The position numbers and the translations under genes are program-made. Shown here piece by piece: positions 5,641 to 22,685 of a stretch of 64,000 nt of DNA. How positions within the stretch are numbered: position 1 is the first letter of the stretch; every line of letters starts with the position of its first letter. The notes under the pieces are model-generated. The model saw only the letters and a list, made by a program, of their open reading frames with translations. It ran no database searches and was not told the DNA's origin. Source of the DNA: Escherichia coli (GTDB lineage: Bacteria; Pseudomonadota; Gammaproteobacteria; Enterobacterales; Enterobacteriaceae). Location: NCBI RefSeq assembly GCF_001677475.2, contig NZ_CP015229.1, one strand, 5' to 3'.

Positions 5641-6663
5641 ATGTTGGATATTGATAAAAGCACCGTGGACTTTCTGGTCACCGAAAATATGGTTCAGGAA
5701 GTGGAAAAAGTTCTCAGCCATGACGTTCCGCTGGTGCACACCATCGTGGAAGAGATGGTGAAGCGCAACATTGATCGTATTTATTTCGTTGCCTGCGGAT
5801 CGCCACTCAACGCGGCGCAAACGGCGAAACATCTGGCGGATCGCTTTTCCGATCTTCAGGTCTACGCCATTTCCGGCTGGGAGTTCTGCGATAACACCCC
5901 GTATCGCCTCGACGATCGTTGCGCAGTAATTGGCGTTTCTGACTACGGTAAAACAGAAGAGGTAATCAAAGCGCTGGAGCTGGGGCGGGCCTGCGGCGCG
6001 CTCACTGCGGCATTCACCAAACGCGCGGATAGCCCGATTACCTCGGCGGCGGAATTTAGCATTGATTATCAGGCCGACTGTATTTGGGAAATTCATCTGC
6101 TGCTCTGCTACAGCGTGGTGCTGGAGATGATCACCCGCCTCGCGCCGAACGCGGAAATCGGCAAGATCAAAAACGATCTCAAGCTGTTGCCGAATGCGCT
6201 CGGTCATCTGGTACGCACCTGGGAAGAAAAAGGCCGCCAGCTTGGTGAACTGGCCAGCCAGTGGCCGATGATTTATACCGTTGCTGCGGGTCCGCTGCGT
6301 CCGCTGGGTTACAAAGAAGGCATTGTAACGCTAATGGAATTTACCTGGACGCACGGCTGCGTGCTCGAAAGCGGAGAGTTCCGCCACGGCCCACTGGAAA
6401 TTGTCGAGCCGGGCATTCCGTTCCTATTCCTGCTCGGCAATGACGAAAGTCGCCACACCACCGAACGCGCCATTAACTTTGTAAAACAGCGTACTGACAA
6501 CGTGATCGTCATTGATTACGCCGAAATTTCGCAAGGGCTGCACCCGTGGCTGGCACCGTTCCTGATGTTCGTGCCAATGGAGTGGCTCTGCTACTACCTG
6601 TCTATTTACAAAGATCACAACCCGGATGAACGCCGCTATTACGGTGGTCTGGTGGAATATTAA
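5641..6663 (+). CDS. frlB: Fructoselysine-6-phosphate deglycase (SIS domains)
   Basis: Track ORF 5620-6663; start trimmed to MLDIDKST (340 aa). Confidence 0.85.
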
Positions 6664-6712
6664 TCCCTCTCCCGGCCCGGCAACGGGCCGGATTTACGCA
6701 AGGAGTTACCCG

Positions 6713-7543
6713 ATGAAAACAGGTATGTTTACCTGCGGCCACCAGCGGCTGCCTATTGAACACGCATTCCGTGATGCAAGCGAGCTGGGTTACGACGGCA
6801 TCGAAATTTGGGGCGGTCGCCCGCACGCGTTCGCGCCGGACTTAAAAGCGGGCGGCATCAAACAGATCAAGGCGCTGGCGCAGACGTATCAGATGCCGAT
6901 TATCGGTTATACGCCAGAAACCAACGGCTATCCGTATAACATGATGCTGGGCGATGAACATATGCGTCGCGAAAGCCTGGACATGATCAAGCTGGCGATG
7001 GATATGGCAAAAGAGATGAACGCCGGTTATACGCTGATTTCTGCGGCCCACGCGGGCTATCTCACGCCACCTAATGTTATCTGGGGACGGCTGGCAGAGA
7101 ACCTAAGCGAACTGTGTGAGTACGCGGAAAACATCGGCATGGATCTAATCCTCGAACCGTTAACACCGTATGAATCGAACGTCGTGTGTAATGCTAATGA
7201 TGTGCTTCATGCGCTGGCGCTGGTGCCTTCGCCGCGCCTGTTCAGCATGGTCGACATTTGCGCGCCGTATGTCCAGTCGGAACCGGTGATGAGTTATTTC
7301 GACAAACTGAGCGATAAATTGCGTCATTTGCATATTGTCGACAGCGACGGGGCCAGCGACACGCATTACATTCCCGGCGAAGGCAAGATGCCGCTGCGGG
7401 AGTTGATGCGCGATATTATTGATCGGGGCTACGACGGTTACTGCACGGTGGAACTGGTAACGATGTATATGAACGAACCCAGACTCTACGCTCGCCAGGC
7501 GCTGGAACGCTTTCGCGCGCTGCTGCCGGAGGATGCGAGATGA
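6713..7543 (+). CDS. frlC: Fructoselysine 3-epimerase (sugar-phosphate isomerase/epimerase TIM barrel)
   Basis: Track ORF 6626-7543; start trimmed to [11 protein letters not shown] (276 aa); SD-like aggag upstream. Confidence 0.85.
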
Positions 7544-8325
7544 AAAACCTGGCGACAATCGGCGATAACTGCGTCGATATCTACCCGCAACTGAATAAAG
7601 CGTTTTCTGGCGGTAATGCGGTGAACGTGGCGGTGTACTGCACTCGCTACGGCATACAACCCGGATGCATTACCTGGGTGGGTGACGATGACTACGGCAC
7701 AAAGCTGAAGCAGGATCTTGCCCGCATGGGCGTCGATATCAGCCATGTCCATACGAAACACGGCGTTACCGCACAAACTCAGGTGGAACTGCACGACAAC
7801 GATCGCGTTTTTGGCGACTACACCGAAGGCGTGATGGCCGACTTTGCCCTGAGCGAAGAGGATTACGCCTGGCTGGCGCAGTATGACATTGTGCACGCGG
7901 CAATCTGGGGACATGCGGAGGACGCATTCCCGCACCTGCACGCAGCGGGCAAACTTACCGCTTTCGACTTCTCCGACAAGTGGGACAGCCCGCTCTGGCA
8001 GACACTGGTGCCGCATCTCGATTTTGCCTTTGCCTCCGCGCCGCAAGAAGACGAAGCGTTACGTCTGAAGATGAAGGCGATTGTTGCCCGTGGCGCAGGC
8101 GTGGTGATTGTCACGCTGGGCGAAAACAGCAGCATTGCCTGGGATGGCGCGCAGTTCTGGCGTCAGGCTCCTGAACCGGTGACGGTTATCGACACCATGG
8201 GTGCCGGAGATTCGTTCATTGCCGGATTCCTTTGCGGCTGGTCTGCGGGGATGACATTACCGCAGGCGATGGCGCAGGGAACGGCGTGCGCGGCACAAAC
8301 TATTCAGTACCACGGTGCCTGGTAG
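7540..8325 (+). CDS. frlD: Fructoselysine 6-kinase (PfkB/ribokinase family)
   Basis: 261-aa ORF, ATG overlaps frlC stop (ATGA); GAGD motif near C-terminus typical of PfkB kinases. Confidence 0.85.
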
Positions 8326-8424
8326 GCATAACGTTGGCGTGAGCATCTTCACGCCAACGTGCTGTTACTTGCCGGAAAACGACCCTATAATCCGTGTAAT
8401 TCATTCTTTATTTCAGGGTCGATT

Positions 8425-9156
8425 ATGTCAGCTACGGACCGCTACTCTCATCAACTCCTCTACGCTACCGTCCGCCAGCGGCTGCTGGATGATATCGCGC
8501 AGGGGGTTTACCAGGCCGGGCAACAGATCCCTACCGAAAACGAGCTTTGTACGCAATATAACGTCAGCCGCATTACCATTCGCAAAGCCATCAGCGACTT
8601 AGTGGCAGACGGCGTACTGATCCGCTGGCAGGGCAAAGGCACCTTTGTACAAAGCCAGAAAGTTGAAAACGCCCTGCTTACTGTCAGTGGTTTTACCGAT
8701 TTTGGCGTCTCACAAGGCAAGGCGACGAAAGAGAAAGTGATCGAGCAGGAACGGGTCAGCGCCGCGCCGTTTTGCGAAAAGCTGAACATCCCCGGAAACA
8801 GCGAAGTGTTCCATCTCTGCCGGGTGATGTATCTCGATAAAGAGCCGCTGTTTATTGATAGTTCATGGATCCCGCTGTCGCGTTATCCTGACTTTGATGA
8901 GATTTACGCCGAAGGAAGCTCCACCTATCAGTTATTTCAGGAGCGTTTTGACACGCGAGTGGTCAGCGATAAAAAGACCATCGATATTTTTGCCGCCACC
9001 CGCCCGCAGGCAAAATGGCTGAAATGCGAACTGGGCGAACCGCTGTTTCGCATCAGCAAAATCGCCTTTGATCAGAATGACAAACCGGTGCACGTCTCCG
9101 AACTCTTCTGCCGCGCCAATCGCATCACCTTAACGATTGATAATAAAAGACATTAA
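8425..9156 (+). CDS. frlR: GntR-family transcriptional regulator of the frl operon
   Basis: Track ORF 8359-9156; start trimmed to MSATDRYSHQ (243 aa); N-terminal HTH with UTRA-like C-terminal domain. Confidence 0.85.
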   Translation: MSATDRYSHQLLYATVRQRLLDDIAQGVYQAGQQIPTENELCTQYNVSRITIRKAISDLVADGVLIRWQGKGTFVQSQKVENALLTVSGFTDFGVSQGKATKEKVIEQERVSAAPFCEKLNIPGNSEVFHLCRVMYLDKEPLFIDSSWIPLSRYPDFDEIYAEGSSTYQLFQERFDTRVVSDKKTIDIFAATRPQAKWLKCELGEPLFRISKIAFDQNDKPVHVSELFCRANRITLTIDNKRH

Positions 9157-9161
9157 CCGTA

Positions 9162-9206
9162 GGCCGGATAAGATGCGCCAGCATCGCATCCGGCGATGCT
9201 GGCGCG
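9162..9206. repeat. REP (repetitive extragenic palindromic) element between convergent frlR and yhfS
   Basis: ggccggataagatgcgccagcatcgcatccggcg palindromic unit characteristic of E. coli REP sequences. Confidence 0.6.
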
Positions 9207-9263
9207 TTGAGGGGACCGTCCGGCGCTGAATTTAGCTTGATTGCCGAACGGGGCTATCCAGCA

Positions 9264-10349
9264 TTAAATACTGGCAATACTCTCACGCAAAATCCGCAGC
9301 ACCGTCTCTTCACCGCTGCGATTTGGGTTAATACGAATCGCGTAATGTTCGAGTTGCGGATTCGCCTGGCGAAACGTTCCGGAAAGGCGATAAAAAAGCG
9401 GCGGGATCTCATATTTCGACTCTGCACCAACCGGGTAAGGCAAGGCACCGCGCTTTTGCGCCTCTTCCAGTACTCTGGCGGCAATCGGCTGATGAAACTC
9501 CACAATCAACACCTTCGACTGTGCATTGGCAATCACCGCGCTTTTCACGTCCGCCACTGCGCCACCGTTAAGTAAAGCCAGCAACCGTTCAGATACCCCC
9601 GCCTGCACCGCGTGCATCACTGGCGCAAACACCAGCCCACGCAAGACTTCCAACGCCTGCGCGCCCTGAATCTGGCTGCCGCCGGAGTAAAGCGTGGCGC
9701 GAATACGGTTGATAACATCAGCATCGCCTACCACCGCGCCAACACCCTCTGGCCCAAATAGCTTGAAGCAGGAAAAAGTCGAGACATTCGCCCCGCATTC
9801 GCAGCCGATTCGCGCTACCTTCATCACCGCATAGTTGTCATCGGTTAAGGCTGGAACACTTGCCGCGCGCAACGTTGCCAGCACATCTGCCAGCACATAG
9901 CTATCCTGCGGCTGCTGGCGCGTATGCTGCACCAGCGCGGCATCTGGTTGTTGCTCGTCGACAACCTGCTTCAGTGCCGACAGGTCATTGAAATCAGCAG
10001 TGATAAGCGTCAGCCCCATCTGCTCAATAATGACCTGAGTCGTCGGGTAAACCGGCGCGTCATGCACCAGAAGACGCTGCCCCGGTTTGAGCAAAACCGC
10101 CAACGCCGCACGAATCGCTCCAGTACCCGCGCCCTGCACCAGCGCCGCAGCCTGTGCGTGAAATGCATCAGCCAGCACCTGTTCCACACGCTGGGTAATG
10201 CGCGGTTGATTCAGTCCCGGCGTTAAGCCTAAATCACCGCCAGCAAGAAACTCGCTGCCGGGAAAATGGCGGCAAATCGTGTCCACCAGCGCAAACTGCT
10301 TTTGCTGCGCCTCAATAAGCGTCAGGCTTTGCAGAGGAAACGTCTTCAT
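9264..10349 (-). CDS. yhfS: Uncharacterised putative PLP-dependent enzyme
   Basis: 361-aa ORF; recognised as YhfS by sequence and position; first gene (3'-most) of the php/yhf cluster. Confidence 0.8.
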   Translation of the reverse strand: MKTFPLQSLTLIEAQQKQFALVDTICRHFPGSEFLAGGDLGLTPGLNQPRITQRVEQVLADAFHAQAAALVQGAGTGAIRAALAVLLKPGQRLLVHDAPVYPTTQVIIEQMGLTLITADFNDLSALKQVVDEQQPDAALVQHTRQQPQDSYVLADVLATLRAASVPALTDDNYAVMKVARIGCECGANVSTFSCFKLFGPEGVGAVVGDADVINRIRATLYSGGSQIQGAQALEVLRGLVFAPVMHAVQAGVSERLLALLNGGAVADVKSAVIANAQSKVLIVEFHQPIAARVLEEAQKRGALPYPVGAESKYEIPPLFYRLSGTFRQANPQLEHYAIRINPNRSGEETVLRILRESIASI

Positions 10350-10360
10350 AGGTGCCTTCC

Positions 10361-11665
10361 TTAAGCTGGAACAAACAGACCAAGCCAGTAAAGAACATTC
10401 AGCAGAATACCGGTGATCATTACTGCCACGACCGGTGCCGCCATTTTCTGTACCGGACGGCCCAGGGATTCGTTGAAGAAGTAAATGGCAACCGCGATAG
10501 AGAATCCGGTATAATCCGCCATTTTAATTGCTGCGAAAATCGAACCGACCAGCAGCGCCACTTCCATCAGCATATTCATGGCGTTACGGATGTTATCCGA
10601 CGCATTACGCACCGACGGATAGCGCCCCAGCCATTTGCCAATCGAACGAAGCAGTAAGACTTCCGCCGAAATAACCACTGCGCCTAATACCGCTGCAACC
10701 ATCGGATTCGGCGAGAGATAGCCCACCGCATAAACAAAGGTAAAGCCCGCAACTGCATACACGCCAGTGGCTAACGCCGTGGTGGCAATCAACGGCACAA
10801 ACCCCAGTCCGCGCATAAATTCTGCCAGAGCCGCCTGATTAATCAGCGTTTGCGATTGTTCCGGCGTTACGCCTGCGGAATATGCTTTCTCCAGTGTGAA
10901 GATCGAAACTTCGCTACCAGCAAAAATCTTCATGCTGGCAACGGCGGCAATCAATGCTCCCACGATGGCGATATACGGTAAGTTTTTGATAATCCGCGAC
11001 GTGCGTTCTTCAAACACCGAAAGCCCGCTGGCATCAATGTCATTTTCATCACGATGACGCAAGTCGTGAGTTATCGCGATCCCCAGCAGCATCACCATGC
11101 CAATAAAGATTTCGATGGATTCAGGGTTAAGATGTGGGAAATAGCGCACGACGACCACACGGGTCATCAGTACCACCACGGCGGCGATCAGACTTTGCTT
11201 CCAGCCAAACTGGTAGAAAATCGCCACCAGCGGGAACAGTGCAAAAGCTGAAACCACCGGCGAGCTTAATTCCCCCAGGCTACCTAATACATCCACCGGT
11301 AGCGCGGTCAGCAGCTGGTTTACCGGCAACAGGCAAGTAAGGATCTACACGCCCCAGATAGCGCCAAGACCAAACGCCATCAGGCTGTTTATCGCCAGTA
11401 CGCCGAGGATATCGGTAGGAAGAAAGAGTAACCATGCGTTGAGCAGCCCGGTTTTCAGGGTAAACGAGATCCCCACCGAGGCCACAAAACCAATGCTCAG
11501 ACCAAAAGCGATACTCCCCGCCTCGCGACGGTTCATATAGCCTTCAATCAGTTGCGGCAGGATCGGGCGGATACCGTCATGAAAAACGGCCGCCGAGCGA
11601 TGCGCCAGAAGCGATGTCATACCCGTCAGGCACGCCACCACGATAATCTGAATATACAGATCCAT
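10361..11665 (-). pseudogene. yhfT: Putative inner-membrane transporter YhfT interrupted by an in-frame TAG stop
   Basis: Two same-frame ORFs (11345-11665, 106 aa; 10361-11329, 322 aa) separated by TAG (rev-comp of cta at 11345-11347) plus 5 sense codons; 106+1+5+322 = 434 codons, the length I recall for intact YhfT. Confidence 0.6.
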
Positions 11666-11676
11666 AGTCGTGCCTT

Positions 11677-12030
11677 TTATTTCAGATGGTTAATCAGCAT
11701 CGGAATCGCGTGTTCGACATGCTCAACGGAAAGCCCAAACGCCACTTTCCCTTCGGCGATCATTTTGGCGATATGTTCGTCTTTCGCTTTAATGCCTGGT
11801 TTGGCAATGGTGCAACTTTTGTTATAGCCAATCACCGCGATGGCAATCGACAATGCCGCGCCCGCACCGGTATTACACGCGCCGATGTAGTAATCCAGTT
11901 GCCCGGATTTCACTTTCATTGCCGCTTCCATGTCGTTGTGAATGAAAACTTCAAAACGGCCAGGAGCCGTCGCTTCAATGGTTTTTTTAATCTGCTCACG
12001 CTGTAAGCCTGCAACACCAATCTTTTTCAT
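11677..12030 (-). CDS. yhfU: Uncharacterised protein YhfU (117 aa)
   Basis: Track ORF 11677-12069; start trimmed to MKKIGVAGL; tightly spaced with php and yhfT. Confidence 0.75.
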   Translation of the reverse strand: MKKIGVAGLQREQIKKTIEATAPGRFEVFIHNDMEAAMKVKSGQLDYYIGACNTGAGAALSIAIAVIGYNKSCTIAKPGIKAKDEHIAKMIAEGKVAFGLSVEHVEHAIPMLINHLK

Positions 12031-12040
12031 GAGTCTGTCC

Positions 12041-12919
12041 TTATTGGAAAAATTGAGAGGGAGTTTCACGTAACATCACATCCACATCGGCCTGACTGAA
12101 TCCTGACTGGCGCAATTGCGGAATAAAGGTGGTCAATAAATAGTCATAGCCATAACCACCGTTGGCTTTTAAATGGGAGCGGCGCGTAATATCCATCGAC
12201 AGCATGACGCGGTTCAGCAACCCACGGTCGCGTAGCGCATGAAGCATCGCAATACGCATTTCGTCCGGGTAGTAACTGTTCTTACCAATGGTGTCGAACT
12301 GCACATACGCGCCGAGATCGATCATCTTCAAAATGTTGTCGAGGTTGTCTTTCAGATCGCAGTGACCAACGGTGACGCGCGAAAGATCAACTCCGTGGGC
12401 TTGCAGTAGCGCCAGTTGTTCCAGACCCATGGTGCTAAAAGAGGTATGCGTGGAGATCGGACGTCCGGTCTGGTTATGTGCCAGCGCGGCGGCAATAAAC
12501 ACCTTCTCTTCCAGCGGCGTAATCTTCCCTTCGCTGGAGCCGATCTCCGCGATGATCCCGGCTTTCAGCTCCGTGCCATCGATACCCTGTTCAATTTCAT
12601 CGACCATCTCCTGCGCCAGTTCCTGCACGCTGCGGGTCGCCACATGTTGCGGGAAAAACGCGTCCTGGTAATAACCGGTACAGGCCACCACGTTGATCCC
12701 GGTTTCGCGCATTACATCGAGCATAAATTGCGCATTGCGCCCCATATAACGGTTGGTCATCTCAATCACATTACGCACGCCCTGGGCCATCAGGTCGTTC
12801 ATCTCCTGGCAAATGAACGCATACTGATCAAGGCGGCAGTCCACGTTGTTTTTAAAGCCTGAGAGATCAATATGCAGATGCTCATGGGCGAGGGTGTAAC
12901 CCGTCGGATCAAAACTCAT
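12041..12919 (-). CDS. php: Phosphotriesterase homology protein (amidohydrolase-superfamily binuclear metal hydrolase)
   Basis: Track ORF 12041-12961; start trimmed to [21 protein letters not shown] (292 aa); HxH metal-binding motif visible at N-terminus. Confidence 0.85.
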
Positions 12920-14142
12920 AGGGTGTCTCCTGCAAACCGGAGGGAGGAAAGAAAAGAGCAACCATTTTGTGGCGGTGGCGCACGGAAAAATTCACACACG
13001 GTAGCCCCCACATCAGAAAGCGTGGTGCGCACACCGAGTTGCGTGTGGACCAGCCCTTGCTGATAAACCAGCACCGGCACCATTTCGCGGGTATGGTGGC
13101 TGTGACCGATTGTCGGATCGTTACCATGATCCGCCATCACGACCAGGCAATCATCTGGCTGCATCACCTCAACAAGCCGGGCAAGGTTTCGGTCAACGAC
13201 CTGCAAACGTTCGGCATAACGTGCGACGTCTTCTGCGTGACCAGCGAGGTCGGTTTCCTGGATATTGGTGCAAATAAACGCCGTCGGATGCGTGTTAAAT
13301 TCGTCGAGGGTGATATCCATAATCCGCTGGCTATCCACCAGGTTTTGCCAGCTCACGCCATAAGGATTGCTGGCAATATCCGCCACTTTCCCCACCAGCA
13401 CGGTTGGTACGCCCACTTCATACAGTTTTTGTGGCACCTGCACTTTATCATCGACACCGTAGCCCATATGCACGACCTGGAAGCCGTTGTCATAAGCGCC
13501 TGAACGCGGCGCATTGATACCAATAAAGCGCCCTTCTTTGCTTTCTGCGGCATCGAGAATGCGTTGACTGTCGGGTAACAGGCCGCCAAATGTAATGACC
13601 CGACCGACCTGTACCTGCTCACGCACAATACGACCAATTTTGATTGCGTCGTCAAAAGAGATCACAGAGAGATTGGCGGTGATGTTATAGACCTGGCCTA
13701 AATCCGCCTCGAGATTATCGCCAATCGCAACCGCCTGATTGACCCACAGAAATTGCAGATCATCGCCACGGCGCTCCACCTGCCAGCCTGCGGAAACTAA
13801 TGCCTGCTCAACACGGTCAATCACATCGCGAAAGGGCATCCGCAGCGGCGGTAACGGGCGCGTGCCTAAAATTTCCTGATGCCCCATAAAGGTATCGCCA
13901 CCTTCATGTTGCAGCTCTGCCACGCCCCAGGTTGCGGAGTCTGACGGCTGCATATCTCCAGGCGCATAACCTAATGCGTTGATTAGCCCCATTTTCTCCA
14001 GCATTGGTAGCTGCAAATGCGGCAACTGGCTCAGGATGTGACCACAGGTATTTGCCCCGGCATCCTGCGGACGCACCAACGTGACATCTTTCATTGCCCC
14101 TACGCCAAAGCTATCAATCACTAACACCACAAATCGCGCCAT
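12916..14142 (-). CDS. yhfW: Uncharacterised phosphopentomutase-like metalloenzyme
   Basis: 408-aa ORF; stop overlaps php start; contains ADHGNDPT motif typical of phosphopentomutase/alkaline-phosphatase superfamily. Confidence 0.8.
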
Positions 14143-15305
14143 TACGCCTCCAGAGGGTTGCCGAGGCTGTCATAACGACCCACAATCTCTGCCGCGCCAC
14201 GCTGAATACCAGACACCAGCACCACATCGCTACGGGTGACAAAAATCTGCGTGCGAAAACAGAGCACCACTGCACTGCTTACCGGATGCTCACCTGCCAG
14301 CGGCAGGGTGTAGTCGATACCGCTGTCATCCACGGCTTTGAGATATGTTTCAGTCACGCTTTGATTCTCTGGCGTAAACACCAACGCATGTTGCGCATGA
14401 CCACGACGGTAATAACCGCCGCCGTAGCAGTAGCTGTCACCACGGAAGTGATGGGAAATTTCGCTCAGCCAAAGCATCGCGATACGTTCAGGCTGGTCTC
14501 CCTGCTGGTTTACCGGAATCGTCCCCGTCAGTGCATGACCGGGTTCGGCATGAGTCACACCGTATTCCGCCAGTAATGGCAGCGAAGTGCAGCTGGTCGC
14601 TGAAGGCGCGTTCAGTTGCTCAATCGCAATACCAGATTTCGCCAGTTGATCCCGTACCTGTATCAGCGTGTGAAGATTCGGTGTCGGCAAAACTTTCCCG
14701 GCAGCCTCATCCCAAAGCAGGCAAGGGAAATGGGTTAGTCCGGCTAAATGCAGCCCCGGCAGTTTCTTAATTTCAGCAACCACCTCGTGCAGCGAATGCT
14801 GTACAAAACCGCTCTCCTGCCCCGGATAAAGAAAATCATCGTCGCTATAAACTTTGAGCAGCACAGACTGGATTCGCCCGGCCTTCACCGCCGCCGCAGA
14901 AACTTCCCGCGCTTTGTCGAGAGTAAACACGGTGATGACGTCGGTGCCCTGTTCAACGGCGTCAGCAACCTGATGACAAGGGATTTGTACCAGATGCCCC
15001 TGATGCGCCACCGGCAAACCAGCGCGGCGCATGACTCGCGCCTCTTTGTAATCCACCGCCACAATGCCGCTGTAGCCCAATGCCAGCAGTTTTTCCGCCA
15101 GCCACGGATTACGACCGAATTGTTTGGTCATCAGATACAGTTCAATGCCGTAAAGCCGTGCCGTCTCAATCAGCCGCTTACCGTTTTCCAGTATCTGATC
15201 CACGTCGATCACCCAGCTGTCCGGGGCGATCTTGCCCTGCTGCCACAGGCTTAGTGCGGCGGAAATCAGCGCCGGGTTCTGGCGTTTCAATGCTTCTACA
15301 AACAT
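14142..15305 (-). CDS. yhfX: Uncharacterised alanine-racemase-like (PLP fold type III) protein
   Basis: 387-aa ORF; 1-nt overlap with yhfW start; recognised as YhfX. Confidence 0.8.
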
Positions 15306-15388
15306 CTTGTTGCCTCGTTTCTGTTCCTTGAGTTAAATATTCATTTTTTTGAATATTTAGGTTGTGCGACGTGGATTTGTCGGGAGCT

Positions 15389-15751
15389 TCAAACCTCTTC
15401 GTTAGCAGCCATCCATAATCCATAAAGGTTGGCCAGCAAATAGCCTTCTTCACACGGGTTAACTTCCAATGCGAATTCCTTCAACAACACCTGATGCAAT
15501 TGCACAACGGCTTGCCAGTGGCTGGATTGCGCCAGCTCTGCCAGCAACTCGTTATCCAGTGGCTCAATTTCTTCACCACGGCGACTGCGCATAAGTGCAC
15601 TCGCCATATGTGTCATCGCCATCGTTCCTTGCTCACTGCGCACCGGCAGATGGCACTCTTTTTCCAGTACGTTGACGACCTGCATCATGCCTTTGCAGAT
15701 GTCCTTATCGATGACCCCTGCATCGCAAAGCAGGTTGAGTCTGGTTTCCAT
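15389..15751 (-). CDS. yhfY: Uncharacterised protein YhfY (120 aa)
   Basis: Track ORF 15389-15871; start trimmed to METRLNLLCDAG. Confidence 0.7.
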   Translation of the reverse strand: METRLNLLCDAGVIDKDICKGMMQVVNVLEKECHLPVRSEQGTMAMTHMASALMRSRRGEEIEPLDNELLAELAQSSHWQAVVQLHQVLLKEFALEVNPCEEGYLLANLYGLWMAANEEV

Positions 15752-15767
15752 TTCAGATGCCTTTGGT

Positions 15768-16673
15768 TTAATAACTGGGTTCCTGTTCCCCACTGACCAC
15801 TCGTTGTTGATGGGCAAGCAGGGCCTGTTTATCAACAACTGCACGCAGCAATTGTTGCATTGGGTAATCATCGACTCGCGTCAGGACCACGGCTTCGGTG
15901 GCCTGTAAAAATCGCGGATCGTCTGTGAGCGGCGTCGCTTCTAATCCCAGCATGGTCAGTTCGTTTTCCGCCACCACGTTCCAGATCACCGCATCAACAT
16001 CGCCTTTAACAATGCGTTGTAAACTCTCGTGATAAGAGAGATCGACACGTTCCACATCACTATCGCCAAAAAAGACATCGGTCATGATTTTCTGATCCGC
16101 CGAACGGTTATCCAGCCCCACGCGCTTCACGTTTGCGGACTCGCCTTTACGGCATATCAACTGGTGTTCGCCAACGTAGGTGTGCGGCCCCAATTCCAGC
16201 GCGAGGCATAACCCTTTTTGCGTGAGATAACTTTCCGCCGCCAGTCGGGAAACCACCGCCATGTCATACACGCCGTTAAGTAAACACTCCACGCGAATAT
16301 CCGCGCCGCGCATATGCGCATAGTAAAAAGGAATGCCATCAAACTGGGCTTTCAATCCGCTCGCTAAACCTTCGTACAAGCGGGTATAGGGCAAAGGCAT
16401 CGCACATACCACGTTGTTGATATCCACATGGCTCAGCAATGCTTTGTTATCCATCTCGACCAGATAACTGCCATTGCGCCCACGGCGTTCAATCCGTATC
16501 GCTCCGCTTGATTCCAGTGTTTTCAACGCTGCCTGCGTCAGGCCAACGGATGAACGGCATTCAGTTGCCAGCTCATCTATGGTTTTCAACCTATTACCGC
16601 ATTTTTCACCCAACAAATAACGGGCCAGCGTCGTGATAACGACGCCTTCTTTTTTGATAAACGTTCGACGCAT
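15768..16673 (-). CDS. yhfZ: Uncharacterised putative regulator YhfZ (N-terminal HTH-like region)
   Basis: 301-aa ORF; first gene of the yhfZ-to-yhfS co-directional cluster; AT-rich promoter region with palindrome upstream. Confidence 0.75.
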   Translation of the reverse strand: MRRTFIKKEGVVITTLARYLLGEKCGNRLKTIDELATECRSSVGLTQAALKTLESSGAIRIERRGRNGSYLVEMDNKALLSHVDINNVVCAMPLPYTRLYEGLASGLKAQFDGIPFYYAHMRGADIRVECLLNGVYDMAVVSRLAAESYLTQKGLCLALELGPHTYVGEHQLICRKGESANVKRVGLDNRSADQKIMTDVFFGDSDVERVDLSYHESLQRIVKGDVDAVIWNVVAENELTMLGLEATPLTDDPRFLQATEAVVLTRVDDYPMQQLLRAVVDKQALLAHQQRVVSGEQEPSY

Positions 16674-16702
16674 AATATATTTTCAATAAAATGAATGTTT
16701 AT

Positions 16703-16722
16703 ATCTTCATTAAAATGAAGAT
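16703..16722. promoter_or_regulatory. Near-perfect 20-bp palindrome in the yhfZ upstream region (candidate operator)
   Basis: atcttcatt-aa-aatgaagat, about 30 bp upstream of the yhfZ start codon. Confidence 0.4.
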
Positions 16723-16791
16723 AAGTGGCAACTGTGAGATGTGGAAACGGCGAGGCGCTTCACATTTTTTCGGATTATTGCAAATGAGGAT

Positions 16792-16817
16792 AAAAAAACC
16801 GGGTTTCCCCGGTTTTT
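16792..16817. terminator. Bidirectional intrinsic terminator downstream of trpS
   Basis: aaaaaaa-ccggg-tttc-cccgg-ttttt: stem-loop flanked by A-run and T-run, 15 bp past the trpS stop. Confidence 0.65.
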
Positions 16818-16832
16818 GGCATTAATGTTAAA

Positions 16833-17837
16833 TTACGGCTTCGCCACAAAACCAATCGCTTCGTACACCGCTTTTAGCGTACGGGAAGCGTGTGCGCTGG
16901 CTTTTTCCGCGCCATCTTTCATCACCTGTTGCAGGAAGGCTTCGTCATTGCGGAAACGGTGATAGCGTTCCTGCAATTCAGTCAGCATACCGGAAACGGC
17001 ATCAGCCACTTCGCCTTTCAGATGACCATACATCTTGCCTTCGAACTGTTTTTCCAGTTCCGGGATGCTCTGGCCCGTTACCGCAGAAAGGATATCCAGC
17101 AGGTTGGAAACGCCCGCTTTGTTCTGCACATCGTAGCGAACTACCGGCGGCTCGTCGGAGTCAGTGACCGCGCGTTTGATTTTCTTCACTACCGATTTCG
17201 GATCTTCCAGCAGGCCGATAACGTTATTGCGGTTATCGTCAGACTTGGACATCTTCTTGGTCGGCTCCAGCAGCGACATTACGCGCGCGCCAGATTTCGG
17301 AATAAACGGCTCCGGCACCTTAAAGATCTCACCATACAGCGCGTTGAAACGCTGAGCGATATCGCGGCTCAGTTCCAGGTGCTGTTTCTGGTCTTCACCC
17401 ACAGGTACCAGATTAGTTTGATACAGCAGGATGTCCGCAGCCATCAGCACCGGATAGTCAAACAGACCAGCGTTGATGTTCTCGGCATAACGCGCAGATT
17501 TATCTTTAAACTGCGTCATGCGGCTCAGTTCGCCGAAGTAGGTATAGCAGTTCAGTGCCCAGCCTAACTGCGCATGTTCCGGTACGTGGGACTGAACAAA
17601 AATGGTGCTTTTCTCAGGATCGATACCACAAGCCAGATACAAGGCCAGCGTATCCAGCGTCGCTTTACGCAGCTTCTGTGCATCCTGGCGCACGGTGATC
17701 GCGTGTTGGTCAACGATACAGTAAATGCAATGGTAGTCATCCTGCATGTTTACCCACTGACGCAGCGCACCCATGTAGTTACCAATGGTCAATTCACCTG
17801 AGGGCTGTGCGCCACTAAAAACGATGGGCTTAGTCAT
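16833..17837 (-). CDS. trpS: Tryptophan--tRNA ligase
   Basis: 334-aa ORF starting [21 protein letters not shown]; class I aaRS with KMSKS motif (KMSKS present). Confidence 0.95.
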
Positions 17838-18588
17838 TTTTCGATTCCTGATTTTCGCTATGCGGAAGCCCTAATGCGGGCAGAAGGTCATTTATAGACT
17901 GATAAATTACATCAGGCTGGCTGAGATCGATAGCCTCGCCGTAGTTATATCCGTAGGTTAAGCCAACGGATGGGCAACCTGCCGCTTTTGCCGCCTGAAT
18001 ATCATTGCGTGAGTCGCCGACAAACAGCATCTGTTGTGGGGCAATTCCCATCCGCTCAGCCACCAGTAACAGCGGGTCCGGATGCGGTTTTTTGTTTTGC
18101 ACATCATCACCGCCGATAACCACACTGAAGTATTTGGCGATATCTAAGGCTTCGAGCAGCGGCGCGACGAACGGCGTCGGTTTGTTGGTGACCAGGCCTA
18201 GCGGCAGGCCTTTAGCCTGCAACGCGCCCAACGTATCGGCAACGTGTGGGAACAAAAACGTCCCCTCTTCGGCAACCTCGCCATAGTAGCGATCGAACAG
18301 TTTACGCAGAATACGTATCTGTTCTTCTGCCGGAATGTCGTCATCAACGGGCGGTTTACCCATTGTTTTACGCTGAGTCGCACGTTCCTGACGCGCCCAG
18401 GTCAATGCGCGCTCCATCAGAACATCTGCGCCGTTACCAATCCAGGTAATAACGCGTTCTTCACCTGCGACGGGCAACTCCAGCGCATACAGCGCCATAT
18501 CTACCGCAGCAGCAAGACCAGGAGCACTGTCGACCAGCGTACCATCAAGATCAAAAGCGACGCCGCGAATATCTTCAAACTTATTCAT
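17830..18588 (-). CDS. gph: Phosphoglycolate phosphatase (HAD superfamily)
   Basis: 252-aa ORF; HAD DxDGTLVDS motif near N-terminus; 8-nt overlap with trpS start. Confidence 0.9.
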
Positions 18589-19258
18589 GACTTACCTTTG
18601 CCAGTTCACTGCGCATTTCATCAATGACTTTTTTGTAGTCTGGCTGGTCGAAGATTGCCGAACCGGCGACGAACATATCCGCGCCCGCCGCAGCGATTTC
18701 GCCAATGTTGTTCACCTTCACACCACCGTCCACTTCCAGACGAATGTCAAAGCCAGACTCGTCGATACGACGACGTACTTCGCGCAGTTTATCCAGTGTT
18801 TGAGGAATGAAAGACTGACCGCCGAAACCAGGATTGACGGACATCAGCAGGATCACATCCAGCTTATCCATCACGTAATCCAGATAGCTCAGCGGTGTCG
18901 CCGGGTTAAATACCAGACCCGCTTTACAGCCATTTTCTTTAATCAGTTGCAGCGTGCGGTCAACATGCTCGGAGGCTTCTGGATGAAAGGTAATGATGCT
19001 GGCACCAGCGGCAGCGAAATCAGGCACAATGCGATCGACGGGTTTCACCATCAGATGTACGTCGATAGGGGCGGTAATGCCGTAGTTACGCAAGGATTTC
19101 AGCACCATTGGCCCAATCGTCAGATTGGGAACATAGTGGTTATCCATGACGTCAAAATGCACGACATCAGCGCCAGCTGCCAGGGCTTTTGCGGTATCTT
19201 CACCCAGGCGGGCAAAATCAGCCGACAGAATTGAGGGGGCAATCAAATACTGTTTCAT
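18581..19258 (-). CDS. rpe: Ribulose-phosphate 3-epimerase
   Basis: 225-aa ORF; recognised Rpe sequence; overlaps gph start. Confidence 0.9.
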
Positions 19259-19275
19259 CCGCTTCTCCTTGAGAA

Positions 19276-20112
19276 TTATTTTTTCGCGGGTGAAACGACT
19301 CCTGGTTTGTACAAAGCCAGCAGTTCGTCCACCTTTTTACGTGTGCCGCCGTTGCTGCTTATACTGCGTCGAACTTTGACGACATGCAATTTTGCGCGCT
19401 GATACCACTCACGCGTTAACATCGTATCGTGATTGGAGATCAGCACAGGAATATGGCGATCAACCAGACCTTCGGCGATCTCCGCCAGATGCGCTTGTTG
19501 TTCAAGCGTAAAACTGTTTGTGTGATACGCCGTAAAGTTGGCGGTCGCAGACAGCGGTGCATAAGGCGGATCGCAATAGACGACGGATGCATCATCTGCG
19601 CGCGCCATGCTATCGGCGTAAGACTCACAATAGAAAAAGGCATTCTGCGCTTTTTCAGCGAAGTGATACAACTCTGCTTCCGGGAAATAGGGTTTTTTGT
19701 AGCGGCCAAACGGCACGTTAAACTCACCGCGCAGATTGTAACGACACAGGCCGTTGTAACCGTAGCGGTTCAAATATAAAAACAGTACCGCCCGACGGAA
19801 CGGATCCTGGCTTTTGTTGAACTCTTCGCGGAACTGATAGTAAACCTCGGCGCAATTTGTTTCGGGAACAAACAGCTCGCGTGCGGCCTGTACGTACTCA
19901 TCAGTACGCATTTTCACAATGTTATAGAGACTGATCAGGTCGCTATTGATATCGGCAAGGATATAACGAGAAAAGTCGGTGTTGAGAAACACCGACCCGG
20001 CACCTACAAAAGGCTCAACCAGACATTCGCCCTTGGGCAAATGCCGTTTAATATCATCAAGCAGGGGATACTTGCCCCCTGCCCACTTCAAAAAAGCGCG
20101 ATTTTTCTTCAT
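19276..20112 (-). CDS. dam: DNA adenine methyltransferase (GATC)
   Basis: 278-aa ORF; DPPY catalytic motif present ([11 protein letters not shown]). Confidence 0.95.
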
Positions 20113-20218
20113 GCTGACTAACTAATTACACCTTCTCCGGCTGTGGAGAAAGCTCCGACAGCATCCAGCGCTTCAGGCAGCTCCCGCAACGATAACCCAT
20201 TGCGGGAGATAACCTTGA

Positions 20219-21505
20219 TTACTTCAGATCGGCCTGTACCTGACGCAGCGGTTTCGCCCACGGGTTTTTGGCCTGGACATCTGCTGGCAATGTAGATACC
20301 GCTTTTTTCGCCTCTTCTTTCGAAGCGTACACGCCAGAAACCAGGACATACCACGGCTGACCATTACGCGTCGTTTCATAGACAACGTAGTTTTTCAGAT
20401 TCTCTTTCTTCGCCCAACCGTTCAGGTTGTCGTAGTTAGAGGAACTGCTCAGCTGCAGAGTGTAATGGCTGGACGGTGCCGATTTCAACGAACCAACATT
20501 ACCTGCGGTCTTCGCCCCAGCAGCGGGTGTTGCTGTGGTTTGCGCCGGGGATGCCGTCTGTACTGGAGCCGTAGTCGCCGTCTCTTTTGGTGCTGGCGTA
20601 GAAGTCGCAGCCGGTGCCTTCGTGCTCGCCACAGGGGCAGCTGGTTCAGTACGCTTCGGCGTCTGTGCTACCGGCTTCGGCTCCGTTTTCACGGTTGCTT
20701 GCGGTTTTTTCGGTTCAATCACCGCCTGCTGACGAGCTGGGCGCGTAGTGGCCGGACGTTCAGCGGTTTGCGTTTTCGCCGTGTCACGCGATGCATTGCC
20801 ATTGCGAACAGGCGCGACAGTCGCGGGTTCAGTCGGCAACGTGGAATTGACCGCCACATTGTTCAGCTGTTGCTGATTTTGTGGCTGGGTCAGCGCATTG
20901 TTCAGGTCACCCTGCACTTCAACACGTTGTTGACCATCCGTTGCCGCCGGGGTTTGCCCTTGAGTCGGCGTAGAAGAGATCGGTGGCAGAGAAACATCCT
21001 GCTGAGTATTTTCCGCAGACGTGGTTCCCGGCGCTGGCTGCACGCCATTCGCCTGATCGGTCGCATTGCCAGCAAGATCAATACTCTTCTCGCCAGACGC
21101 GGTTTGATCGCTGGAAGAGGTCGAGGGGGCTTTTAGCGCAGAACCGATACCGATGATCAACAGCAGTAGAACCAGAATGCCGACGCCCATCATCATATAC
21201 TGACGAGAAGCGGGTTTACTGGCTGCTTTTTTGCGCTTACGCGGACGACGCTCTACGCGCTCTTCATCCACGGTTTCATCTTCGGATTCGTCAATTTCTT
21301 CTTCGATTTCCGGTTCCTCATTGCGCTCTTTTTGCGCACGAGTCGGACGGCGATCGTCAGTGTCATCAAGTTCAATATCATCAAAATTGATCTGCGGTTC
21401 GCCACGTTCAGTACGCTCAGAACGTTCAGAAGATTGACGAGAACGACCAGTACGACGATCGCTGGGATCGGGTTTCAGCTCGTCTTCTGGTTTGAATTCA
21501 TCCAT
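20219..21505 (-). CDS. damX: Cell-division protein DamX (SPOR domain, low-complexity Pro/Thr/Ala/Gln-rich linker)
   Basis: 428-aa ORF; acidic N-terminus, single TM, long low-complexity linker, C-terminal SPOR-like domain. Confidence 0.9.
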
Positions 21506-21596
21506 TTAACACCCCACTAAAAGGTTAATGCTTACCACGTTGCAATTAACCTGAAGCTAATAGACCGCTTGATAAGCGGCCTGACCTTTCTTGTTG

Positions 21597-22685
21597 TTAC
21601 GCTGATTGACAATCGGCAATGGCGTTAAGAACAAGCTCGTGCGAAACGCCGCTGCGAACTTCACTCTTACCAATTGCCAACGGAAGAATTAAGCGTATCT
21701 CTCCCGCAAGGACTTTCTTGTCACGCAGCATATGCGGTAAATACGCCTGCGCGGACATTTCGCGCGGCCCATTGACCGGTAACCCAGCCCGCTTGAGCAG
21801 GGTTATAATACGCTGCGTTTCGGCAGAACTAAACTGCCCGAGACGTTCCGACGTCCGCGCCGCCATCACCATACCCGCAGCGACCGCTTCACCATGTAAC
21901 CAATTGCCATACCCCATTTCAGCTTCAATGGCATGACCAAAGGTGTGTCCCAGATTCAGTAAAGCACGTAACCCGGTTTCGCGCTCGTCGGCGGCGACAA
22001 CTTCTGCTTTCAGCTCACAACAACGGCGGATACAGTACGCCATTGCCGGACCGTCCAGACGCAACAACGCATCCAGATTCTCTTCCAGCCAGTTGAAAAA
22101 CGCACCGTCAAGAATAATGCCGTATTTGATGACTTCTGCCAGCCCCGACGCTAACTCACGCGGGGGAAGCGTTTTCAGACAGTCGAGATCCACCACCACT
22201 GAAGCAGGCTGGTAGAACGCGCCAATCATGTTTTTACCGAGGGGATGGTTGACCGCAGTTTTGCCGCCAACGGAGGAATCGACCTGCGACAGTAACGTCG
22301 TCGGGACTTGAATGAAACGTACGCCGCGCTGATAACTCGCCGCCGCGAAGCCGGTCAGATCGCCCACTACGCCGCCGCCAAGCGCCACCAACGTAGTATC
22401 GCGACCATGCGGCTTTTGTAACAACGCCGTAAAGACGGTATCGAGTACAGCCAGGCTTTTATACTGCTCGCCGTCAGGGAGGATAACGCTATCGACGTTA
22501 ACACCCGCCTGTTCAAGTACGCCGCGGACCTTATCGAGATACAGAGGAGCCAGGGTTTCGTTGGTGACCAACATGACCTGCTCGCCCGATTTCAGCGGTA
22601 AGAATGAAGCTGGTTCATTAAACAAACCAGATGCGATGGTAATTGGGTAACTACGTTCCCCGAGAGTAACGACAATCCTCTCCAT
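21597..22685 (-). CDS. aroB: 3-dehydroquinate synthase
   Basis: 362-aa ORF; recognised AroB sequence. Confidence 0.95.

Follow-up and report, generated by a model that had tools for sequence, protein, structure and literature searches.

The yhfZ–yhfS cluster of Escherichia coli, a conserved enzyme–transporter locus with a putative link to the phosphotransferase system

The window analysed here is a 64,000-nt stretch of Escherichia coli contig NZ_CP015229.1 (assembly GCF_001677475.2), and the subject is the yhf gene cluster at its positions 9264–16673. Eight open reading frames (ORFs), all running in one direction on the minus strand, fill this interval in an ORF listing that covered 7000–19000. 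Each of them corresponds to a gene annotated in RefSeq for E. coli strain 1190, where the series is named yhfS, yhfT, yhfU, php, yhfW, yhfX, yhfY and yhfZ, so that the eight co-directional genes and the coordinates given in an initial annotation of the window agree with the annotation of the species. The initial annotation had also put the cluster forward as a candidate undescribed system for which no physiological substrate had been assigned. As far as function is concerned, this holds. No substrate or pathway assignment was found in the full-text literature searched (subscription-only papers aside), a paper of January 2026 still calls yhfW uncharacterised, and yhfZ appears in the searched literature only as a screen hit or in a list of bacterial interspersed mosaic elements (BIMEs). 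It does not hold for the genes, which are long catalogued, named and annotated. Crystal structures of four of the proteins have been deposited (4KBX, 4J8L, 1BF6/4LEF and 2OZZ) under the labels 'uncharacterized' or 'hypothetical', and the cluster itself is no discovery.

The genes are closely packed, with junctions of 11 nt (yhfS/yhfT), 11 nt (yhfT/yhfU), 10 nt (yhfU/php), −4 nt (php/yhfW), −1 nt (yhfW/yhfX), 83 nt (yhfY/yhfX) and 16 nt (yhfZ/yhfY). The 4-nt overlap between php and yhfW (12916–12919) and the 1-nt overlap between yhfW and yhfX (14142) had been recorded correctly. However, the upper limit of 12 bp stated for all spacers is exceeded at yhfZ/yhfY and at yhfY/yhfX, where the spacer spans 15306–15388.

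The first gene, yhfZ (15768–16673, minus strand), encodes a regulator of 301 aa in which Pfam recognizes a GntR-type winged helix (HTH_41) and a ligand-binding domain (YhfZ_C). It scored 374 bits with NF041241 (cutoff 260), and PDB entry 2OZZ covers residues 74–301. Its winged helix, effector domain, family score and co-occurring palindrome identify YhfZ as a predicted GntR-type factor. Three TTCA-N6-TGAA palindromes were found in the window. Two of them, O2 (16676–16701) and O1 (16700–16723), lie in tandem directly 5′ of yhfZ (16676–16723), while the third, O3 (15334–15359), lies inside the yhfY–yhfX spacer. O2, the proximal yhfZ palindrome, fills the spacer between the −35 and −10 elements of the only sigma-70-like match upstream of yhfZ (16701–16674, minus strand). 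O3 reads TAAATATTCA-N6-TGAATATTTA, with perfect 10-nt arms, and is unique within the 64-kb window (0 expected in shuffles). Its core is situated 34–49 nt upstream of the yhfX ATG, and its position (−47 to −49) is kept in Escherichia, Citrobacter, Klebsiella, Trabulsiella, Pluralibacter and two isolates labelled Enterobacter sp.

The motif is not confined to E. coli. In 84 related loci, a TTCA-N6-TGAA palindrome occurs at most 150 nt upstream of 52 of the 73 yhfZ genes, against a background of 0.011 per such window. Enterobacteriaceae carry two tandem sites, Yersinia and Vibrionaceae one, and Sebaldella three identical copies. In three Enterovibrio loci (L071, L075 and L076), which have no yhfZ at that position, the palindrome is found about 220 nt upstream of yhfU. 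Since the motif accompanies yhfZ across phyla, it is most simply explained as a putative YhfZ operator. The same Enterovibrio loci contain yhfU, yhfT, yhfX and yhfW without adjoining yhfZ, yhfY or php. In Photobacterium, a second yhfZ paralogue (48% identical) is encoded about 12 kb downstream of the cluster (20577–21293 in locus L067 and 20622–21293 in L070), and it is likewise preceded by a TTCA-N6-TGAA palindrome.

The position of O3 bears on the transcription units. The cluster had been described as a probable single operon behind yhfZ, but the 83-nt yhfY–yhfX spacer holds a conserved putative operator, and the operon table reproduced in PMC4448311 lists php, yhfS, yhfT, yhfU, yhfW and yhfX without yhfZ or yhfY. 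Taken together, these two observations argue for two YhfZ-controlled units rather than one operon, probably yhfZY and yhfXW-php-yhfUTS. Terminator-like sites inside the cluster were not in excess of chance in a terminator scan (10 found, 9.4 expected).

The locus is bounded by a hairpin on the trpS side and by a REP-like (repetitive extragenic palindromic) element on the yhfS side. The former, an inverted repeat (AAAAACCGGG/CCCGGTTTTT) with a T-run located after trpS (16794–16817, minus strand), was read directly from the sequence; the terminator scan did not list it, its loop being 4 nt and its stem having few G-C pairs. Its probable role is to shield the yhf promoter from transcripts reading through from trpS. 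The REP/BIME-like element (9162–9221), which forms the 3′ boundary, separates the convergent genes frlR and yhfS. Its partial matches to Rfam naRNA4, at 33.8 bits on one strand and 24.3 bits on the other, do not reach the gathering score of 59.5. PMC2965389 deals with BIME-type elements in the vicinity of yhfZ-class genes. A riboswitch or other structured RNA in the spacers was considered and rejected, as the Rfam search (E ≤ 1, 8500–17500) retrieved just this sub-threshold match, outside the cluster, and the yhf entries of a riboswitch-prediction paper turned out to be distant intergenic windows.

Four of the products are enzymes with intact catalytic sites, as judged across 42–81 orthologues per protein. 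Ever since its structure was determined, Php has served as a textbook 'enzyme without a substrate'. The gene (12041–12919, minus strand) encodes a 292-aa phosphotriesterase (PTE)-homology amidohydrolase that scored 648 bits with NF007373 (cutoff 486) and is near-identical to PDB entries 1BF6 and 4LEF (E 1e-193). The HxH motif noted initially is present as H12-x-H14 and, together with E125, H158, H186 and D243, forms a binuclear metal site conserved at 97% or more in 81 orthologues. TIM-barrel, metal ligands and model score all place Php in the PTE family. Neither of the two characterized subfamilies compared fits it by model, since the phospho-furanose lactonase profile NF045706 gave 98.6 bits (E 4e-28) against a cutoff of 630 and the organophosphate hydrolase (OPH) profile NF041153 gave 100.6 bits against a cutoff of 500. 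YhfW (12916–14142, minus strand; 408 aa) is a phosphopentomutase-like metalloenzyme of the alkaline-phosphatase superfamily (NF009049, 728 bits, cutoff 254) that also retrieved PDB phosphopentomutases at 1e-30. The ADHGNDPT motif reported for it is present (A337-DHGNDP-343), along with D10, D83, T84 and H88. Among 71 orthologues D10, D83, H88, D298, H302, D338, H339 and H350 are invariant and position 84 is Thr or Ser. On its score and its metal/Thr-nucleophile site, YhfW is predicted to belong to the phosphopentomutase family; the canonical DeoB models nevertheless score it below their cutoffs (178 versus 256 bits and 142 versus 341).

The remaining two enzymes depend on pyridoxal phosphate (PLP), as had been proposed, and their PLP lysines (K61 in YhfX, K196 in YhfS) are conserved. 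YhfX (14142–15305, minus strand; 387 aa; PDB 4KBX) combines an alanine-racemase-like barrel (Pfam Ala_racemase_N) with a YhfX-specific C-terminal domain (YhfX-like_C). The barrel and the invariant K61 define it as a fold-type III PLP enzyme. In profile searches its next-nearest solved relatives were alanine racemases (1e-4) and D-threonine aldolase (1.5e-3), and it fell into no characterized racemase or aldolase subfamily (ornithine racemase NF040742, 32 bits versus a cutoff of 480). YhfS (9264–10349, minus strand; 361 aa) is a fold-type I PLP enzyme (Pfam Aminotran_1_2 and YhfS-like_C) and an optional member of the cluster. It corresponds to PDB 4J8L, 'Uncharacterized protein YhfS' (E 1e-226), and its closest solved relatives belong to the Cys/Met gamma-lyase and C-S lyase families, with methionine gamma-lyases at 1e-11 to 1e-9 in a profile search. 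Both K196 and D170 are invariant. Structure and hidden Markov model searches thus bore out the initial fold calls: a PTE amidohydrolase, a phosphopentomutase-like enzyme, two PLP enzymes, a membrane protein and a helix-turn-helix regulator. What had been missed were the threefold palindromic operator and the identities of YhfY and YhfU.

YhfY (15389–15751, minus strand; 120 aa) is a stand-alone protein consisting of a PRD, the regulation domain of the phosphotransferase system (PTS). The window protein matched Pfam PRD over residues 24–106 (E 3.9e-4) and, weakly, TIGR03582 (E 1e-6). Of 19 orthologues, 13 matched Pfam PRD at E ≤ 1e-3 and all at E ≤ 0.1, the best reaching 3e-11. The phosphorylatable histidine of the domain is conserved, as His48 is invariant together with Ala52, Arg55 and Glu101; a second histidine is retained in Clostridia and replaced by Asn in Proteobacteria. 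No fused RNA-binding (CAT) or DNA-binding output domain was found in the 120 aa of YhfY, the DNA-binding domain being in the separate protein YhfZ.

YhfU (11677–12030, minus strand; DUF2620, 117 aa) is an alpha/beta protein resembling a truncated RpiB/LacAB isomerase. The RpiB/LacAB fold and the catalytic Cys motif were both found, the latter as an invariant Cys52 in a GAC(N)TG(A)GAA loop. YhfU falls short of a full-length RpiB/LacAB protein (117 aa versus structural targets of 148–212 aa), and Pfam LacAB_rpiB aligned to residues 33–61 only (E 0.17). Its gene is always encoded beside yhfT, and the YhfU–YhfT pair is also found on its own. The gene yhfT (10361–11665, minus strand; 434 codons) specifies the PF10797 membrane protein and is a pseudogene in this window. 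The predicted structure of YhfT, although modelled with confidence, matched no solved fold. The modelled fold is not EIIC-like, homology to EIIC (the PTS membrane component) was not detected, and YhfT matched no NCBIfam model.

These families recur together far beyond E. coli. The comparative set comprised 80 genome loci and additional metagenomic loci, about 90 loci from four phyla in all. The genome scan was seeded with a 14-sequence YhfT alignment, a 56-sequence version being too divergent. YhfT is a rare family: at 50% identity, 1.84 billion proteins yielded 304 representatives, and 150 of about 100,000 species have a match. Clusters were detected in Enterobacterales, Vibrionaceae, Sebaldella (Fusobacteria), Clostridia and Bacilli. 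In these, YhfZ, YhfY, YhfU, YhfT, Php and YhfX, and in most loci YhfW, are encoded together on one strand in an order that is rearranged between groups. The PRD, DUF2620, PTE, YhfX and mutase families still accompany YhfT when its own identity has dropped to 27–31%, and a PRD protein is present in nearly all clusters. On the short contigs of the most distant loci (27–29% YhfT identity), yhfZ was not seen. The co-occurrence of the same families in shuffled order, together with purifying selection on all eight genes, substantiates the proposal that they act as one functional unit. Clustering of 1,070 flanking ORFs revealed no further partner gene shared across phyla.

Some members are missing from particular lineages. 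yhfS is absent from Vibrionaceae and Yersinia clusters, and yhfW from eight to nine Yersinia loci (L044, L046, L048–L051, L054 and L055 among them). One of these, L048 (Y. aldovae), has a truncated yhfX in addition to the loss of yhfW. In Shimwellia (L056), just php, yhfU and yhfT are visible on a short contig. In a metagenome-assembled genome (L011), three paralogous ATP-grasp genes (11815–16353) lie directly downstream of a distant yhf-type cluster that contains PRD, DUF2620, YhfT, PTE, YhfS and YhfX.

In E. coli the cluster physically adjoins the frl operon for Amadori products, and a connection between the two had been hinted at. Comparative genomics gives no support for this, and a functional frl link was rejected. 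The recurrent neighbours are cysG, nirBDC, trpS, gph, rpe and dam, which reflect lineage-specific synteny, and no frl-like family is among them. In Citrobacter, Klebsiella, Buttiauxella, Cedecea and others, yhfS adjoins cysG/nirBDC, and other lineages have other neighbours. The frl neighbour is therefore a red herring. Within frl, the frlC ORF (6626–7543) begins at the first in-frame ATG, 87 nt 5′ of the annotated 831-nt gene; this N-terminal extension is probably a mere upstream in-frame start and not real.

Genes in line with the cluster give indications of its metabolic setting. Genes for HPr, a general PTS protein, follow the last enzyme gene in five clusters (L010, L084, L086, L087 and L099). 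Four of the five were scored with TIGR01003, all above its cutoff, and the fifth (L086) was recognized by a BLAST match. Enzyme I (EI) is encoded in line in L081, where its gene overlaps yhfW, and in L099. In three Bacilli, nagB is located 12–37 nt downstream of the cluster (TIGR00502, 262–294 bits, cutoff 237). Other clusters have in-line genes for a Cof-type haloacid dehalogenase (HAD) sugar phosphatase or for a ComB-like phosphatase, and an NgcE-like ATP-binding cassette (ABC) binding protein (a weak match) is encoded upstream in L099. In Sebaldella (L068), an amidase-like gene (11347–12378) directly follows yhfT, and the AFDB entry G5HJH7 (Clostridium citroniae) is a fusion of YhfT to an amidase-signature domain; the fusion and the adjoining gene are a hint of an amide bond in the substrate.

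The near-universal PRD protein and the presence of HPr or EI in six independent clusters tie the system to the PTS. Two features of PTS permeases, genetic association with general PTS proteins and PRD-type control, are thus found here. A phosphorylating uptake module formed by YhfU and YhfT is plausible in view of their constant pairing and of the invariant Cys in a phosphate-cradle-like loop. The enzyme set, with NagB, the sugar-phosphate phosphatases, the amidase and the NgcE-like protein, fits the catabolism of an amine-bearing sugar derivative that would end near glucosamine-6-phosphate. We therefore propose, with about even confidence, that the cluster is a self-contained uptake-and-catabolism locus for an amine-bearing sugar derivative, wired to the PTS. 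The substrate would most likely be of the hexosamine type and contain a lactone, ester or amide bond open to hydrolysis.

The steps of such a pathway can be outlined as follows. We infer both the binding of a YhfZ dimer to the 20-bp palindromes (ATMTTCA-N6-TGAAKAT), two over its own promoter and one before yhfX, and the sign of the regulation that would follow; through them YhfZ would control the units yhfZY and yhfXW-php-yhfUTS. Judging by its PRD identity, YhfY would probably signal to YhfZ, through His48, how far the PTS is phosphorylated (HPr~P or YhfU~P). YhfT and the RpiB/EIIB-like YhfU, with Cys52 in its glycine-rich loop, would import the compound and might phosphorylate it. Php, whose binuclear metal site is intact, could then open or deacylate it, and YhfW, with an intact phosphomutase site, could move the phosphate. 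YhfX would be expected to epimerise or cleave at the amino-bearing carbon, and YhfS, where present, to remove a substituent. The product may join central metabolism at glucosamine-6-phosphate, to be deaminated to fructose-6-phosphate.

Several observations weigh against this proposal. Only six clusters, every one of them from Firmicutes or metagenomes, have HPr or EI in line, and only three have NagB, so these genes could be lineage-specific additions. Two of the clusters with HPr (L010 and L099) also carry ABC sugar permeases, which weakens the case for YhfT as an importer. No EIIA family was detected among the products of the window cluster or of the roughly 90 loci related to it, and none of the clusters has a recognisable EIIB or EIIC gene. 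YhfU is structurally closer to RpiB sugar-phosphate isomerases than to EIIB and could be an enzyme instead of a phosphocarrier. Moreover, whole genera do without YhfS or YhfW, so the scheme outlined above does not apply to every cluster. Given the missing EIIA, the lack of an EIIC-like fold and the isomerase-like YhfU, we commit only to the description 'PTS-linked'.

A second explanation, the likeliest of the alternatives and one that we regard as possible, if unlikely, is that the operon is an ordinary catabolic one, independent of the PTS, and breaks down an amino acid derivative (for instance a D-amino acid, an amino-lactam or a beta-hydroxy amino acid). YhfT would then act as a secondary carrier and YhfU as a soluble enzyme of the isomerase type. 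Opening of a lactam or lactone would fall to Php, and racemisation and degradation of the amino acid to YhfX and YhfS, with the PRD protein providing carbon-catabolite control only. This agrees with the proximity of YhfX to alanine racemases and D-threonine aldolase (and its weak ornithine racemase match), with that of YhfS to methionine gamma-lyase and C-S lyases, with the structural preference of YhfU for RpiB, and with the missing EIIA and EIIC-like fold. One distant YhfT also adjoins an Orn/Lys/Arg-type decarboxylase. However, a near-universal phosphomutase with an intact site has no role in plain amino-acid catabolism, and HPr and EI in line in six clusters are hard to square with catabolite control alone. 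NagB and the sugar-phosphate-type phosphatases indicate sugar phosphates, and YhfU is always found beside YhfT, even as a lone pair.

At the other extreme, YhfY, YhfU and YhfT might together constitute an unrecognized type of PTS permease, a proposal that we find doubtful. Phosphate would pass from EI and HPr, perhaps by way of His48 of YhfY as an EIIA stand-in, to Cys52 of YhfU and then to the substrate during its passage through YhfT, and the downstream enzymes would form a new amino-sugar route ending at glucosamine-6-phosphate. If YhfU/YhfT does phosphorylate during transport, it would be a new family in the PTS, a system thought to be fully inventoried. If it does not, YhfT would still be an orphan transporter family with an unseen fold.

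A role in the detoxification or salvage of an organophosphate, a phosphonate, or a phosphorylated xenobiotic or antibiotic, with Php as a phosphotriesterase or diesterase and YhfW in phospho-transfer, is improbable. Php does belong to the PTE family, matches the OPH model at 100 bits and has many phosphotriesterases among its PDB relatives, and YhfW, a member of the alkaline-phosphatase superfamily, has weak matches to phosphonoformyl transferase. In one published screen, over-expression of yhfW raised the minimum inhibitory concentration 3-fold for two antibiotics, and the yhfZ knockout was among the ten hits of a published peptide-resistance screen. These phenotypes are small and unspecific, however, and the OPH (100 versus 500) and phospho-furanose lactonase (99 versus 630) scores are far under their cutoffs. 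The two PLP enzymes, the PRD and, in some clusters, NagB, HPr and EI fit nutrient catabolism. No defence-system model matched. Anti-phage defence and phage origin were likewise rejected, no PADLOC or PHROG family having matched any cluster product.

The nonsense lesion noted in yhfT was borne out. Codon 107 is changed from TTG (Leu107) to amber TAG at 11345–11347, which splits the gene into ORFs of 106 aa and 322 aa. The same split is present in a near-identical NCBI assembly (L005, 1 base different over 14.9 kb), and the exact 106-aa N-fragment on 34 public contigs, so the amber codon is no sequencing artefact but an allele carried by a lineage. Another variant, equal in length, occurs on 240 contigs and is named E. 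coli. Fragment and variant together indicate that the truncation is fixed in at least one sizeable E. coli lineage. Since the stop deletes three quarters of YhfT, YhfT-dependent uptake has most likely been lost in this lineage, with the enzyme genes still intact. The lineage of this window is thus a yhfT null and unsuited to phenotype screens. In Trabulsiella odontotermitis (L063, 10001–12381), yhfT and yhfS are each split into two ORFs, an independent inactivation at the same cluster end. YhfT segments 100% and 86% identical to the E. coli type occur in the AFDB entries A0A077ZJH0 (Trichuris trichiura, labelled 'Gasdermin-D') and A0A0A2WJZ4 (Beauveria bassiana), respectively; these are likely bacterial contamination or chimeric gene models.

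Across Escherichia lineages (dS 0.14–0.60), the ratio of nonsynonymous to synonymous substitution rates (dN/dS) was 0.011–0.119 for the eight genes, lowest in yhfT and yhfU, which indicates that the cluster is maintained by selection and that the amber codon is recent. A decaying, functionless remnant, for which one might invoke the amber codon as a symptom of general erosion, the truncated YhfT entries common in public E. coli assemblies, the split genes of T. odontotermitis and the 366 of 5,425 complete E. coli genomes with a match in which less than 80% of the yhf region is covered, is very improbable given this constraint (strongest in yhfT), the conservation of all catalytic residues, the retention of the region in 5,059 of 5,426 complete E. 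coli genomes and the intact yhfT of two near-identical strains with an identical YhfX protein (L006 and L007). The region in the window is at most 96.3% identical to any of these 5,426 genomes, compared with 99.2% for the adjacent trpS–damX stretch. The low value at first raised the suspicion of an Escherichia other than E. coli, which was dropped in view of the flank identity and of the E. coli names borne by the exact proteins. Divergence from strain 1190 peaks at 10000–10999 and 14000–14499 (92–94%). The difference between 9000–17000 and 17000–22000 of the window suggests mosaic or recombined yhf alleles.

The yhf cluster is one of the larger intact E. coli gene clusters without a function, and the comparative evidence narrows the search. 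New in this analysis are a putative operator with a probable two-unit layout, the recognition of YhfY as a PRD protein and of YhfU as an RpiB-like protein bearing an invariant Cys, a YhfT fold without known counterpart, the conservation across phyla and the associations with the PTS and NagB. The evidence points to PTS dependence and to an amine-bearing, sugar-type substrate that would feed glucosamine-6-phosphate. The putative operator also defines a reporter, and an old question is now open to direct experiments.

Known systems resemble the cluster in part. The adjacent frl operon (fructoselysine) likewise serves catabolism, in this case of a glycated amine, under a GntR-type regulator of its own. 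However, the two share no protein families, they are convergent and separated by the REP-like element, and their adjacency is not conserved outside Escherichia. Compared with the RpiB/LacAB isomerases, YhfU is shorter (117 versus about 150 aa), shows marginal sequence similarity and is always paired with a membrane protein, which RpiB/LacAB are not. The layout is shared with the 'EF_0829/AHA_3910' conserved hypothetical cluster (TIGR03576–TIGR03583; Gly_rich_SFCGS), which encodes a stand-alone PRD protein, a Cys-Gly-loop protein of about 120 aa, membrane proteins that belong to no known family, a PLP enzyme and an amidohydrolase. In both, an orphan transport module, a hydrolase and a PLP enzyme are placed under PRD control. 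YhfY matched TIGR03582 at 1e-6, YhfS matched TIGR03576 weakly, and one YhfU orthologue matched Gly_rich_SFCGS at 8e-4 and three at ≤ 0.1, all below the family cutoffs. The membrane proteins are not detectably related, and that cluster is itself uncharacterized.

Two characterized kinds of system combine a PTS with comparable chemistry. In the Salmonella dga operon (D-glucosaminate), which consists of a mannose-family PTS, a SelA-like PLP lyase, a 2-keto-3-deoxy-6-phosphogluconate (KDPG) aldolase and a sigma-54 activator, the PLP enzyme takes the amino group off a phosphorylated amino-sugar acid. The yhf cluster resembles dga as a PTS-linked catabolic operon with a PLP enzyme but has none of its families. 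In the phospho-sugar-lactonase PTS clusters of Listeria and Bacillus (Lmo2620/Bh0225, PTE-family COG1735) and in the E. coli ula (L-ascorbate) PTS regulon, a lactonase, of the PTE family or another, is encoded beside PTS-type uptake and a regulator of its own. The compound enters as a phosphorylated cyclic ester, which is then opened by the hydrolase. The likeness lies in Php, which matches the NCBIfam 'phospho-furanose lactonase' model (E 4e-28), albeit with 99 bits against a cutoff of 630. Unlike these systems, the yhf cluster lacks EIIA, EIIB and EIIC of the Asc or Gat type and encodes in their place YhfU and YhfT, which do not match their folds, and it adds two PLP enzymes and a phosphomutase to the hydrolase.

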